A DNA stretch of 55,343 nucleotides, taken from an uncultured archaeon. GTDB taxonomy: Archaea; CAYQAE01. Below are positions 10,778 through 20,300 of the stretch, one piece after another. The notes beneath the pieces are model-generated. The model was given only the letters and a program-made list of their open reading frames with translations, was not told the origin of the DNA and did not search any database. Every line of letters starts with the position of its first letter. Positions within the stretch are counted from its first letter, which is position 1. Both the position numbers and the translations under genes were made by a program. The stretch covers positions 6,192 through 61,534 of the forward strand of contig CAYQAE010000003.1 of assembly GCA_964415445.1 (NCBI GenBank), read 5' to 3'.

Positions 10778-11173
10778 TTTATATATCTGAAAAAGGATGT
10801 AAATAATAGAATTGACATATGCAATAGTGGAAATGCTTTAGTTTAGCTTGATATGGCTTAAATGAGAGGGGATGTAAGGGAGAGGTCAAAACAAATGATA
10901 TTAATCCTCTTTTAGAACAGAAAATATCTTAGTAGATTTAGTCGAAACTATAAAGCAAGATATAGCTATGCATATGCAAGTGTATAATGTAGATAATGCA
11001 AAAGAGCGCAAGCTTTGTATTGTATACTTTGATAATTATAATCACGTTCATAATCTCATATGATAGATCAGGTCATTGTGGTGACCTTTAGGGTTTGGTT
11101 AGTTGAACCTTTTTTGAATTTATAAGAGAAATTCACTGTTTTTCATCAAACAAATAAGCTAATTTTGTAAATT
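10778..11173 (+). promoter_or_regulatory. Conserved promoter + roughly 390-nt leader module, copy A
   Basis: tttatatatctgaaaa promoter-like box. Conserved islands atggcttaa, gagagg..gggagaggtcaaaacaaa..cctcttttaga and gc.caagctttg. The last approx 136 nt are near-identical to copy B, with hairpins at 11070-11087 and 11097-11109 and T6 at 11110-11115. Confidence 0.7.
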
Positions 11174-12256
11174 ATGTCAAATAAAAAAAATATGATGAAA
11201 ATTGTTTTTGTTTTCATTTTCATCTTTATGCTTGTTCCCTTAATGCATGTGCAGGATCGGGATCAAGAAAAAATAAAGTATGATTTGAATAACAAGATAA
11301 TAACGGCAAACGGCGCTCCCCCACCCGAAATAATTGGGTGGGCAAATACAACCCAGATCAATCTTAATTTTACGGAGTTTCTGGTTAATTTTTCGGTGAA
11401 TTACGTTGATATCAAAATTAGCAATCAAACGGAGTTGCGTTGTATTGATGGATTCAAACCATTTAATCAATCTTCAGGGGATTTTATTTCGGCTTGGGAT
11501 TGGTTGAATGGTACTCTGGTGATACCAATGGCTGACAAAAATAATGTCAGCACGGAGATTGATCTATCGATAAATAATGGAAGTGAAAACTTCTATTATG
11601 AAAATGTAACTCGCCCCCAAGGCGAGGTACTTTCGATAGACGGAGACACGGTGTGGGCCAATAATATGATTATTGGCTCCAACGGGACCACGGTAAATTT
11701 CACGAGTAATCATCGTGAATTTCGGTATTACGAAGAAAGAAATGGAACTCTGACCCTTTTTGGGGTTTGGAGTAACATTTCGGTGGCGATGAACATTGAT
11801 TATACGCCACCTCCAGAAGATCCCGAGCCTCCTTCCGATCCAGAGGACCCCCCGAACTCAACAACAGTTATTTTCGTTGTTGAGGACGGAAATGGAACCC
11901 TCGTCATTGACGAGGAGAATCACTCAATCAAGCTTTTGTATAAAGATTGGGCGATTGTCTCAGTTAATGCTGAGGTGAATGCCTCTGGATGGGATAAAGA
12001 GTCAAATCGCTCTTCTATTAAAGTGAAGAGCGAATTTTCCCAGAAAATCCATGTAAATGGAGAAAACTGGGAATTTAGAACTATAGAAGTCGAGAAAGAA
12101 GTAATTAATGAGATTTCTATACTTTTAATAGCCGTGATCCTTGGGATCACGGTTTTGGCCCTCGCCGGGGTTGGTTACCTCGGTAGAAAGATTAAAAATC
12201 TTTCTATTGGGCAAAATGATCTAAGCCCACCGAGTGCGCCACCACAGCCGCCATAA
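11174..12256 (+). CDS. Type-I membrane-anchored surface glycoprotein (signal peptide, many NxS/T sequons, Pro-rich linker, C-terminal TM)
   Basis: N-terminal MMKIVFVFIFIFMLVPLMHV. PPPEDPEPPSDPEDPPNS linker. C-terminal ISILLIAVILGITVLALAGVGYLG followed by RKIK. Many N-x-S/T sites. Confidence 0.6.
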   Translation: MSNKKNMMKIVFVFIFIFMLVPLMHVQDRDQEKIKYDLNNKIITANGAPPPEIIGWANTTQINLNFTEFLVNFSVNYVDIKISNQTELRCIDGFKPFNQSSGDFISAWDWLNGTLVIPMADKNNVSTEIDLSINNGSENFYYENVTRPQGEVLSIDGDTVWANNMIIGSNGTTVNFTSNHREFRYYEERNGTLTLFGVWSNISVAMNIDYTPPPEDPEPPSDPEDPPNSTTVIFVVEDGNGTLVIDEENHSIKLLYKDWAIVSVNAEVNASGWDKESNRSSIKVKSEFSQKIHVNGENWEFRTIEVEKEVINEISILLIAVILGITVLALAGVGYLGRKIKNLSIGQNDLSPPSAPPQPP

Positions 12257-12261
12257 TTAAA

Positions 12262-12283
12262 TTTTTTATTTTTTTATTTTTTT
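12262..12283 (+). terminator. Oligo-T terminator tracts
   Basis: ttttttatttttttattttttt just after the stop codon. Confidence 0.45.
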
Positions 12284-16841: not shown

Positions 16842-16961
16842 TATTTCTGGTATTTCTTATTTTTGAAAACCTATCATTTATACACTAATTTTCTATTTTA
16901 AGTATTTTTCAGCTAATCTATATATACTAATTATATATGTTATTGCTATTTTCACTAAAGG

Positions 16962-17356
16962 TTTATATATCTGAAAATGAATCTAGTATCAGTGTTGATA
17001 TCTCAATTAGCAAATTTATTGCCACATGGCTTAATATAGCCAAAATTGAGAGGGATGCAGGGGAGACGGTCAAAACAAAAACATGTATTCCTCTTTTAGA
17101 CATTGATAGTATTTAGAATGTATAGTAGCTTACTTAAGTAGTATATTCATGTGCATAGGTTTATCTATGATTTAGATAAATTAAAATAGCACAAGCTTTG
17201 CAACATAAGCTTCAAATTAGATAATCACGTTCATAATCTCATATGATATATCAGGTCATTATGATGACCTTTAGGGTTTGGTTAATTGAACCTTTTTTGA
17301 ATTTATAAGAGAAATTCATCTTTTTTCATCAAACAAATAAGCTAATTTTCTAAATT
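16962..17356 (+). promoter_or_regulatory. Conserved promoter + roughly 395-nt leader module, copy B
   Basis: aaaggtttatatatctgaaaa box. Same conserved islands as copy A. The last approx 136 nt differ from copy A at 8 positions by my count. Hairpins at 17253-17270 and 17280-17292, T6 at 17293-17298. Confidence 0.7.
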
Positions 17357-20300
17357 ATGACAAATAAAAAATTGATGAATAGAAATAGAAGAATAAACCT
17401 AGAAATAATGGCATTAGCCACTTTTTTTATAATCATGTGGATTTTGCCATTAAAATATTCTATAAAATCGTTATTAACTATAACGTCAATATCTGTGATT
17501 TTCACATTGGCAAACAAGCTGGCAATCAAGATTTATGGAACAGATCTTGTTGCCCACGGAGGAGGAATGGTTGCAAATTCCCGTGATTACGGGGCAGCAA
17601 TAAAATATCCAACTGAGAACATTTCGGAAGATCAAATGACTCTCTTATTTGTCATTGCAAAACATTTAGGAGAGCATTACGCTGTAAAAAGACTTTTCCA
17701 AGCGATATTACCGACATTGACCTTTGCGACTTTGCTAATATTCAATTATTGGGGCACGTTTAATTTAATGCCCACAATGATTGGTGTTTTTGCTTTATTC
17801 ATCGAAATGATGGATATATACACTGGTCTTAAAGGCGGGAAAGATTACCGACGAATAATCGGTAATGCGGTAATATCCATTGGAATTTCCGGAATAGTTT
17901 TGCTGTGGATCGAACCCGGATTCAGAAAAGTTTTAGATTTCTTTTACATTGAATTAACAACTGATTTTTCGGTTAATATCCTATTGCTTTCAGTTGCTTC
18001 GTGTATGTTTTTCTTAGGATTGGTTTTAAGATTTAAATCCGAAGAAAAAAAAGTACCAAAATTGATGAATGGAGTTTTAAAAGGAATAGCCATAACTATT
18101 TGGCTAGCTTTATTCCTTAATAATCTGTTTATCAAATATATTAGCAGCGAAATATTGATAAGCCGTGATTACGCACTAACTGTAGCTCTGGTTGTTATTG
18201 CAGTATTATCGCTGCTACCATTGATTTTAATGATAAGGCATCTGATGCAGAAACCAGACAAAAACAAAAAATTACTACTGAAAATTTCATTGACAAGCAT
18301 TGGAGCAATAGTCGGGATAATTATTTTATTTTGGAAAATCCCTGACCTTTTAAATGTTTTAAATGTAATGACACTGACTCCTGGAATGTTTTCAGAAACA
18401 CTAAAACAATGGGGAATTCCAATAGTAATTTTATTGATTCCCACGTTGATGTTGGTCATTTTTAGACCACAAACTAAAAATCAAATGATTTTTATACTGG
18501 CGATTTATCTTTTCACGGTGATTTTCGCATTGACTTTAAAGCCGATTTATGCGGCAAATCAGATCATTCTTTTGATAACTTGGATTTCAGTTTTATATTG
18601 TTATCTTAAGAATTCGATGGTAAAGTCAACGTCATTGATTTACATAGTGTTACTGGCGATCGACGCTCATCTGACTGGATCGTTTTTTGTAATCTTTCCC
18701 CTGATAATATCAAGTATCTCAACATTTAATGTTGAAAAATACTTTGATAAAAAAACAGGCGGGAAATCCGAAAGTGGCAATTATAAGAAATTTTGCAAAA
18801 AATTGCCCAAATGGTTAGATGAGTTTCGAAAAGAGATCAAAGAGATCAGAAAATGCGATGAGACAGAAGCAAAAAAGAAATTGAAACCATTGACAGATAT
18901 CACTGACAACATTGATTTTAGAAATATAAACGATAAAACTAACAATGGGTGGTTGGATCCCACTTTCTTGTTAGTAACGGCAATGGGGATCTTAATCCTT
19001 GGATTTACGATGGTAGTTCTTTCTTTTGCTTCTGAATTTAGAATTCAGATGGTAGGAATCATTTTGATGCTACTGGGAATACATGAAATGCGGTGTGTTC
19101 CTAAAAGAAGTGACAGAGAACTTAAATCGGTGACTGAGATAGATTTCGATGATAACCAAAAGAAACTAATTGAAAAAGAAGGAGGCTGTGTAAAACCCAT
19201 GGAAAAAATGGGCGTTGAAAAAGGTGTAACAGCCTTTATTGCACAGCTATACCTTGAAGCGGTGACGGACGTTAATCAAATAAGATTACCTATAGATATC
19301 ACAATGACATCAAAAGGGAACATAGATGAACTAAAAGAGATCTTGAGGATTTGTTTTATGATAAAACCTGCCTTAGAAAGGCAGTTAATTGAAAACATTT
19401 CTTCCAGGACGCAAAAAAAGATGTTAGTGTATTTAGAATTGGGGTTAATCAAGGTAATGCCCCAAGCTGCATCTAAATACGAACAACTGAACAAGGAAGC
19501 ATCGCTTATATCCGGGACTGCTGGGAGAAAAAACGTAGCACTGGATTTCAATGAAGTTCCAGAGATTAAAACCAAAGAAGATCTAGAAAAATTGGAAAAG
19601 ACGTTTCCGGAGTACTTTTTGATTGCAGATCATAAGCATTTTCCGAATGTTGTTCTGCATGATGAAACTGGTAAATATTCCAATCACAGAAAGATCTGGA
19701 CCTACCATGTAGGTCTTGCGGTGATAAACAAAAATTCATTGAGATTCAACAGACAGGGATATGTTGAAGATCGAAACGAACCCGGAATCGGAAAAACTAC
19801 TGCTGATCGATCATTTTTGTTCTTTCTAAAAGCAGTGGATGACAAAAAAACGAAAAAAATTAACGGCGAAGACTATAAAATCTGTGATGTATCTTTGATC
19901 GAAGAACCACCGATATTTGCATCGGCTGTGGCTGATAACTATAGTCAGTTGCAAAAAGCGAAGTATTCCGGAAAATCTTCCGGAAACAGACTCTTTGAAA
20001 TGTCGTCCGTAGTAAGGACGACTTATCCATTGAAATCATTAGCGTTGATGGTCTTGCTACTGTTAACGTTGCCCATGTCTATCATGTTAGGTGGATTTGC
20101 TTCAAAAAACCTATCATATTGGATTTTTGGGACATTAGTGTTGTCGCCCTTTACAATGATTGCCTATGTTTTTTCAATTAGGAACATTGCAAAGGAACAA
20201 AGAGCTAAATGGTCCGGGTGGAGAGGAATCGGAGGATTTGTCCTAGATCTTTTGGTGACAACTGATTCATTGATACAATCGATTGCACTGCCCTGGGCGA

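Follow-up and report, generated by a model that had tools for sequence, protein, structure and literature searches.

The window analyzed here is a 55,343-nt stretch of contig CAYQAE010000003.1 (GenBank assembly GCA_964415445.1), which comes from an uncultured archaeon and has a G+C content of 28.8%. On its forward strand, gene C (7936-8814), gene A (11174-12256), and gene B (17357-20590) are each preceded by a copy of the same leader-like module, and these three copies, named after their genes, are the subject of our study. The 360-aa protein of gene A contains 19 N-X-S/T sequons, is signal-like and hydrophobic at its N terminus, and has a hydrophobic anchor at its C terminus, which fits its earlier description as a surface glycoprotein. 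Likewise, the 1077-aa protein of gene B contains many hydrophobic segments and is polytopic, and the 292-aa protein of gene C is apparently cytoplasmic. All three are orphans. Proteins A and B are unrelated to each other (best BLASTP E = 3.1), and each matches only itself among 5.8 billion proteins; for protein C, a full HMMER search of 1.84 billion representatives returned the self-match alone. As to the functions of the three proteins, searches of Pfam, NCBIfam, PHROGs, PADLOC, and PDB were uninformative.

A first-pass annotation of the window had described a promoter and leader duplicated ahead of genes A and B. Global alignment and a repeat finder agree on two copies at the positions given there, with a whole homologous extent of 10735-11190 for copy A and 16920-17373 for copy B, both on the plus strand (repeat family D5, 10953-11195 vs 17136-17378, spacing 6183). 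Similarity is modular, with conserved islands (TTTATATATCTGAAAA, GGTCAAAACAAA...CCTCTTTTAGA, and AGC.CAAGCTTTG) set among variable spacers. The final 136 nt (11038-11173 vs 17221-17356) differ at exactly 8 positions, the number counted earlier. Furthermore, identity runs past the ATG: the first five codons, which lie within the duplicated block, differ at codon 2 only (MSNKK vs MTNKK), and identity stops at 11189. Ahead of this block, a diverged 5' part of ~245 nt (10794-11037 vs 16978-17220) is 65% identical; its alignment score of 113, compared with -15.9 +/- 11.2 for dinucleotide shuffles (z = 11.5), therefore reflects homology and not chance in AT-rich sequence. Upstream of the TATA box, similarity between the copies is weak (z = 2.0). 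A two-unit direct repeat (CTAATnTATATAT-like) is found in A and B, 20-50 nt upstream of the B recognition element (BRE) and TATA box (10730-10755; 16913-16939), and is a possible activator site.

Duplication by the assembly was rejected, given that A and B have diverged. Core identity (the core is described below) is 94% for A vs B and 68% for A vs C, and A vs B are 65% identical in the adjacent 5' domain. A 94% block beside a 65% block seems best explained by a mosaic history in which gene conversion occurred recently or one gene captured the 5' end of the other, since the core tolerates change, as A vs C attests, and yet the near-identity of A and B reaches into the first codons. Recombination between the two direct copies, which the first-pass annotation had raised, is possible; the longest perfect runs shared by A and B are 28-33 nt.

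A third copy of the module

The earlier description implied a third copy, and one exists in partial form at 7780-7879. It came to light during a listing of TATA-like sites, when the sequence ATCACGTTCAT was spotted at 7785, ahead of gene C. Copy C keeps the element order of the 3' block of A and B with differing stem sequences. When a covariance model was made from A and B only, copy C scored 36.2 bits (E = 1.6e-6) without a single nonstandard pair, and the same model found nothing else in the window better than E ~1. Between A and C, the core is 68% identical (z = 7.9). The core is all that C shares, the flanks on both sides being unrelated to A (z = 0.3).

Upstream of its core, copy C has a region of its own (7683-7765, plus strand), with a TATA-like TTTATATA at 7683-7690 and a long G-rich/CU-rich hairpin (GGGGG at 7719-7723 with CUCUC at 7761-7765). 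This stretch does not resemble the A/B 5' domain in sequence (z = 0.3) and may be part of the element. Adjoining the box of copy C is a second TATA-like sequence, a perfect TTTATATA at 7778-7785.

The covariance-model search that the first-pass annotation had suggested was run over the window with models of A and B alone, of all three copies, and of the 5' core. It recovered copy C and no further copy: across the whole window, unfiltered, models R1, R2, and R3 gave no fourth member. The leader of a gene for a 3746-aa adhesin-like protein (33052-32887, minus strand) has a similar layout by eye and was rejected as a member at E ~5. That gene probably starts at 32887, with an ATG served by the ribosome-binding site GAAGGT. 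Its leader contains a BRE/TATA (AAGGTTTATAAG), a G-rich/CU hairpin, a hairpin AGGCAU/AUGCUU followed by U6, a further hairpin, and GAGGUCAAAACA 20 nt ahead of the ATG.

Four hairpins maintained by compensatory changes

The core common to A, B, and C spans ~90 nt and consists of the invariant box ATCACGTTCAT and four hairpins, HP0 to HP3. The box begins single-stranded (AUCACGUUCAU) and runs into HP0, which overlaps it; then come HP1, HP2, whose 3' arm enters a run of six or seven U, and HP3. In copy A, this 3' module occupies 11041-11134, with the box at 11041-11051, HP0 pairing 11048-52 with 11059-63, HP1 pairing 11070-75 with 11082-87, HP2 pairing 11090-96 with 11105-11 ahead of U6 at 11110-11115, and HP3 pairing 11116-21 with 11129-34. 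Copy B has the module at 17224-17317, with the box at 17224-17234, HP0 at 17231-17246, HP1 at 17253-17270, HP2 at 17273-17294 ahead of U6 at 17293-17298, and HP3 at 17299-17317. In copy C, it lies at 7785-7869, with the same box at 7785-7795, HP0 pairing 7792-96 with 7803-07, HP1 at 7816-7832, HP2 at 7834-7849 ahead of U7 at 7847-7853, and HP3 at 7854-7869. All are on the plus strand.

The stems differ between A/B and C in sequence and retain their pairing. HP1 is GGUCA/UGACC in A and B and GGUAAU/AUUACC in C (within AGGUAAU/AUUACCU); HP2, of 6-7 bp, is AGGGUUU/GAACCUU in A and B and AGAGCU/AGCUUU in C; HP3, which opens with GAAU throughout, is GAAUUU/AAAUUC in A and B and GAAUAC/GUAUUC in C. 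In an alignment fitted to the covariance model, all 24 modelled pairs are standard in all three copies. Six of them are kept through two-sided changes between A/B and C, every helix having one or more of them and HP3 two. None of 500 shuffles matched these pairing values, and sliding the partners by 1-3 columns lowered pairing to 35-52% and left no compensatory pair. As an independent check, each copy was folded alone, and the minimum-energy structure was the same four hairpins in each. G-U pairs occur in HP2 and HP0, and there are three more in the GGGAGAGG/CCUCUUUU stem described below; they can form on the plus strand only, and when the minus strand of A is folded, HP2 is lost. The structure therefore belongs to RNA of the gene sense. 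Of the explanations that the first-pass annotation had offered, a structured RNA on the gene strand is the one that fits best.

Two rivals were weighed at this point. One is that a segmental duplication or conversion tract moved a promoter region and left a neutral relic. The abutting 94% and 65% blocks are typical of conversion, and the copies sit in a variable island full of orphan and defence-like genes, both of which would suit such an origin. We nevertheless judge it very unlikely: conserved islands persist in a background diverged by 35%, every helix has compensatory changes, and at 68% identity the third copy retains the box, all hairpins, and the U-tract. The other rival holds that the copies are recombination or mobile-element sites, either attC-like cassette boundaries or element ends, that mark exchangeable gene cassettes. 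Direct copies in one orientation ahead of unrelated orphan genes, with structure conserved more than sequence, speak for this idea. An integron attC site would lie 3' in its cassette, near an integrase gene, and would form one long imperfect hairpin that has R''/L''-L'/R' boxes and the core GTTRRRY. What is present are four short hairpins 5' of genes and accompanied by a promoter, with no R/L boxes and no GTTRRRY core. No integrase domain or transposase is encoded in the window, and a search around the copies for mobile-element ends and inverted repeats gave nothing convincing, with neither terminal inverted repeats nor target duplications. On this evidence the attC-like candidate was rejected, and we regard recombination sites in general as extremely improbable.

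Copies A and B have, in addition, a larger 5' domain of ~200 nt that they share with each other only (10826-11028 in A; 17010-17212 in B, homologous, with the same helices and compensatory changes). In A, a predicted long-range helix closes it (10826-28 and 10833-36 with 11022-28). Inside are a hairpin AGCU/GGCU (10845-10858), a G-rich/CU-rich hairpin GGGAGAGG/CCUCUUUU (10878-10913) with the conserved loop GGUCAAAACAAA (10884-10895), and a hairpin AGC-GCAA-GCU (11005-11014). All 31 predicted pairs are standard in A and B, and 6 are compensatory, 3 of these in the closing helix. Support for this structure is moderate: A and B themselves served to derive it, and its pairing values are reached by 11 of 500 shuffles. 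Two G-rich strands compete for CCUCUUUU and are the only candidate for a switch. A motif, UCAAA(A)CAAAU, occurs twice in each A/B leader, one site being the loop of the G-rich hairpin and the other lying 20-30 nt ahead of the ATG (10884-10895 and 11146-11155 in A, with equivalent places in B); it may be a two-site binding motif or a chance occurrence in AT-rich sequence.

Predicted promoters, U-tracts, and proposed control of the downstream genes

Copies A and B each have a BRE/TATA ~395 nt upstream of the ATG, together with a 16-nt box that is identical in the two copies within a region of only 60-70% identity. In A, the promoter-like sequence is at 10773-10793, with the TATA box TTTATATA (10778-10785) inside the conserved box TTTATATATCTGAAAA; in B, it is at 16957-16977, with the consensus AAAGGTTTATATA followed by the conserved box. 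Transcription starts ~23 bp downstream of a TATA box (PMC4247193), which would place the starts near 10808 in A and near 16992 in B and give predicted leaders of 366 and 365 nt. The leader of ~390 nt proposed in the first-pass annotation is likewise a prediction from these BRE/TATA sequences. The accompanying claim that such a leader is atypical for archaea is overstated: long leaders are a minority and not exotic. In Methanolobus psychrophilus, 24% of 5' untranslated regions (UTRs) exceed 150 nt, with the longest at 497 nt (PMC5378194), and in Thermococcus kodakarensis ~20% are 50-300 nt long (PMC4247193).

With both promoters and pairing in hand, a control region acting at the DNA level can be weighed. 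Here ATCACGTTCAT and the inverted repeats would be operators in a shared regulon promoter, bound for example by the winged-helix protein encoded at 6502-7389. The box of copy C lies directly downstream of the perfect TTTATATA at 7778-7785, where archaeal repressors act; a protein with a winged helix-turn-helix plus a nuclease domain is encoded beside C; and a two-unit direct repeat precedes the TATA box in A (10733-10753) and B (16913-16938). Palindromes that serve proteins conserve sequence, however, and here it is pairing that is kept, including G-U, which is a mismatch in DNA. Furthermore, the box in A and B is ~230 nt downstream of the only good promoter. We consider operators an improbable reading.

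In all three copies, a stem-loop directly before a U-run stands between the predicted promoter and the start codon. HP2 is followed by U6 in A, U6 in B, and U7 in C, 60-90 nt before the start codon. A second U-run follows in A (U5, 11139-11143, 30 nt before the ATG) and in B (U6, 17321-17326, after HP3), so the near-identical block of A and B holds a hairpin, U6, and a second U-run, that is, termination signals. Archaeal transcription terminates at runs of four to seven U, in concert with aCPSF1, and does so efficiently where there are two such tracts (PMC8716108). Measured against a minimum of four consecutive U, ideally as two tracts, A has U6+U5, B has U6+U6, and C has U7. A scan with sigma-70 and terminator consensus sequences, which are unsuited to an archaeon, left HP2 below its G-C threshold. 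Between the predicted start and the HP2 U-tract (~300 nt) A and B have no T5 run, compared with an intergenic average of 13.7 per kb, which is weak evidence of avoidance as 42-66% of the region's own shuffles are also without T5. No conserved open reading frame (ORF) occupies the leaders, and an upstream ORF or leader peptide was rejected. A 21-codon ORF is present in A and B only, with all 4 of its differences nonsynonymous and 3 of the 4 in hairpin loops, and the equivalent frame in C stops after 6 codons.

The U-tract also invites the view that the copies are stand-alone small RNA genes, of ~305 nt in A and B and shorter in C, that have their own promoter and end at the HP2 U-tract. The RNA could act in trans, or the downstream gene could simply be transcribed independently from a proximal promoter. 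A strong BRE/TATA at one end and a hairpin with U6-7 at the other would suit such a gene. Moreover, a weaker TATA-like sequence lies ~55 nt before each ATG, which could be the gene's own promoter: TTTATAAG (11119-11126) just after the U-tract in A and B, within HP3, and ATTATACA (7881-7888) in C. There is also a precedent, in that a predicted riboswitch-like RNA of T. kodakarensis is an orphan transcript whose downstream gene is transcribed separately (PMC4247193). Against these points, HP3 lies past the U-tract and still covaries, with its 2 compensatory pairs. The TATA-like sequence of A and B belongs to HP3 and is missing at that place in C, all three modules point the same way and are about equally far from a start codon, and the near-identity of A and B continues unbroken into coding sequence. 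Small RNA genes are the main rival to the leader reading and seem to us rather unlikely.

Covariation on both sides of the U-tract, in HP0 before it and in HP3 after it, argues that functional RNA spans the tract, as in a read-through leader. Our preferred reading is a new family of structured cis-regulatory 5' leaders, co-transcribed with three unrelated orphan genes and putting them under one control, to which we assign a probability of roughly 45%. The leader family itself is real and nonrandom; it is probably functional, and the following mechanism is plausible. The leader probably controls premature termination. Polymerase from the upstream promoter would encounter, 60-90 nt ahead of the start codon, a site of termination or cleavage, as the U6-U7 runs after HP2 suggest from the way archaeal U-runs act with aCPSF1 (PMC8716108). 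The share of transcripts that reach the ORF would then be set at the HP2 U-tract, by a protein or small ligand recognizing the invariant box and the hairpins, and in A and B the helix-closed ~200-nt 5' domain could add a second input. A more specific version, an archaeal modular attenuator in which the ~90-nt core is an expression platform with a dedicated RNA-binding factor or ligand to govern read-through and the A/B domain is a new class of sensor, strikes us as doubtful.

Several observations weigh against the preferred reading of a regulatory leader. The promoters are consensus matches only, in a genome of 29% G+C where TATA-like strings are abundant, and the weaker TATA-like sequences near the ATGs were noted above. 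The folding energies of the core are unexceptional (z = -0.5, -1.0, -2.4), so the support for structure comes from covariation and not from stability. Effectively, the covariation compares two independent lineages, A/B and C, with pairs counted on a model-fitted alignment. No antiterminator-type alternative pairing common to A/B and C appeared in the structures inspected. In C, the start codon and its flanks (7875-7945) are predicted to pair with CAUGAU just 3' of HP3 (p ~0.94); this sequestration is strong in C and absent from A and B, and masking of the start codon was rejected as a common mechanism. Finally, no homolog outside this contig was found in Rfam, in pattern scans, or among relatives found through KsgA.

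Genomic setting and known systems

The window encodes archaeal housekeeping proteins (KsgA, DUF655) and proteins related to tetrahydromethanopterin (a dihydromethanopterin reductase and an MJ0301-like protein). Judged by KsgA (2020-2793, minus strand), the host is a deep-branching archaeon of a very poorly sampled lineage, because the best nonself match among the same 5.8 billion proteins is only 58% identical and, among named relatives, the closest (Thermococcus and Pyrococcus) reach 46-47%. The copies sit in a variable island rich in orphan and defence-like genes, and all 3 of the island proteins tested are strict orphans. In the interval 2020-5652, DUF655 and ksgA are kept apart by the gene for an ATPase of 418 aa (AAA_14/DUF4143), a match to the candidate defence family PDC-S01. 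It is an apparent insertion; DUF655 and ksgA are side by side in a related contig (L027). An AbiEi-like antitoxin is encoded at 365-1180. Divergent from copy C is the minus-strand gene at 6502-7389, whose product combines a winged helix with an Mrr-type nuclease domain, has weak CARF/Csa3-like matches, and is a candidate regulator of the shared module. Between A and B lies the gene for a 1332-aa coiled-coil protein (12843-16841), with an internal duplication of ~460 nt (13802-14113 vs 14267-14572). In the leader of this gene, a consensus TATA at 12642 precedes T7 and a hairpin, and another TATA-like sequence is found at 12785. Between the divergent genes upstream of copy A (10568-10668, plus strand) lie a TATA-like AAATATTTATTTA and, after it, a hairpin ATGCTTAA/TTAAGCAT and T9, which may represent a ~60-nt small RNA or else a bidirectional terminator. 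Farther on, at 33179-37502, are two tandem paralogues, each with a LanC-like domain and many bacterial TSP3 (calcium-binding) repeats, which dominate the direct-repeat families of the window.

Relatives of the element were sought in several ways. Rfam 15 gave no match in the whole window at the gathering threshold, and none within copies A, B, and C at E up to 10; to our knowledge, few Rfam motifs reach archaea. In species-representative genomes, the pattern GGTCAAAACAAA N5-20 CCTCTTTTAGA had no match, and CACGTTCAT...CTCAT...TTTTTTGAA had 16, with ~15 expected by chance; going by record titles alone, all 16 are bacterial metagenome-assembled genomes or isolates and were taken as chance. The same CTCAT pattern matched 9 JGI metagenome contigs and 1 viral contig, all ten of 32-56% G+C and unlike the element beyond the pattern, and a looser 5' pattern gave 2 chance matches among viral contigs. 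The relatives found through KsgA (at most 58% identity, on short contigs) do not contain the element. Two described types of RNA were also considered and rejected. A type III toxin-antitoxin (ToxI-like) arrangement, in which tandem RNA repeats precede a terminator and a toxin gene, is at odds with leaders that have no tandem repeats within them and with downstream proteins that are mutually unrelated. For a C/D-box small RNA or K-turn, C (RUGAUGA) and D (CUGA) boxes were looked for in all members; UGAUGA is found in the HP1 loop of copy B only, with UGGUGA in A and a GAA loop in C.

The element belongs to no described family and falls in the broad class of cis-regulatory leader RNAs. One bacterial counterpart is JUMPStart/ops, a short conserved element in the long leaders of surface-polysaccharide, haemolysin, and pilus operons that sets terminator read-through by recruiting the specialized elongation factor RfaH. 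The likeness lies in a conserved leader element before unrelated, mostly envelope-related operons. The two differ in that ops acts as unstructured nontemplate DNA in a paused complex, whereas the module described here is structured. No RfaH-like paralogue of Spt5 was seen in the window, although no search was aimed at it.

Among archaea, long 5' UTRs of the 130-370 nt class are documented, and posttranscriptional roles have been suggested for them (PMC5378194, PMC4247193). Those UTRs are gene specific, and a shared covarying module ahead of unrelated genes is undescribed in both studies (PMC5378194, PMC4247193). The fluoride (crcB motif) and preQ1-like riboswitch candidates of Thermococcales are likewise structured RNAs upstream of archaeal genes (PMC4247193), in a group related to the nearest named relatives of the host. 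Unlike our module, they have another sequence and architecture; the Rfam models find no match here, and the downstream genes hint at no ligand. The U6-U7 runs, and the two U-runs ~23 nt apart in A and B, resemble the aCPSF1-dependent terminators of Methanococcus maripaludis, in which a two-run arrangement gives high termination efficiency and aCPSF1 binding (PMC8716108). Those U-tract terminators mark the 3' ends of transcription units and need no hairpin (PMC8716108), whereas the signal described here is surrounded by conserved covarying hairpins within a putative leader.

The way the element works may be most like a bacterial attenuator or riboswitch expression platform, transferred to an archaeal termination context. 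As in the bacterial systems (PMC5314783), a promoter is followed by a structured leader, a hairpin running into a U-run, and a start codon, and the larger upstream domain of A and B could serve as a sensor. Unlike them, it occurs in an archaeal host, where termination needs a U-tract and aCPSF1 and not a hairpin; no antiterminator and no Rfam match were found; and one core precedes three unrelated genes, with or without the upstream domain. Attenuators and riboswitch-like leaders are thinly documented in archaea, and a 2014 transcriptome study of T. kodakarensis reported no direct in vivo support for them (PMC4247193). With three copies on one contig of an uncultured organism the value of this case is limited, but it shows how orphan genes of a variable island can gain expression signals by copying a complete 5' end. 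The modular-attenuator version, if correct, would make the module an archaea-specific natural switch for conditional termination, one that spread among fast-evolving orphan genes by copying of the whole 5' end, that is, promoter, leader, start codon, and first codons. A covarying leader around a U-tract, reused before three unrelated genes, would offer a concrete construct with which conditional termination can be tested in archaea, in vitro or by reporter.

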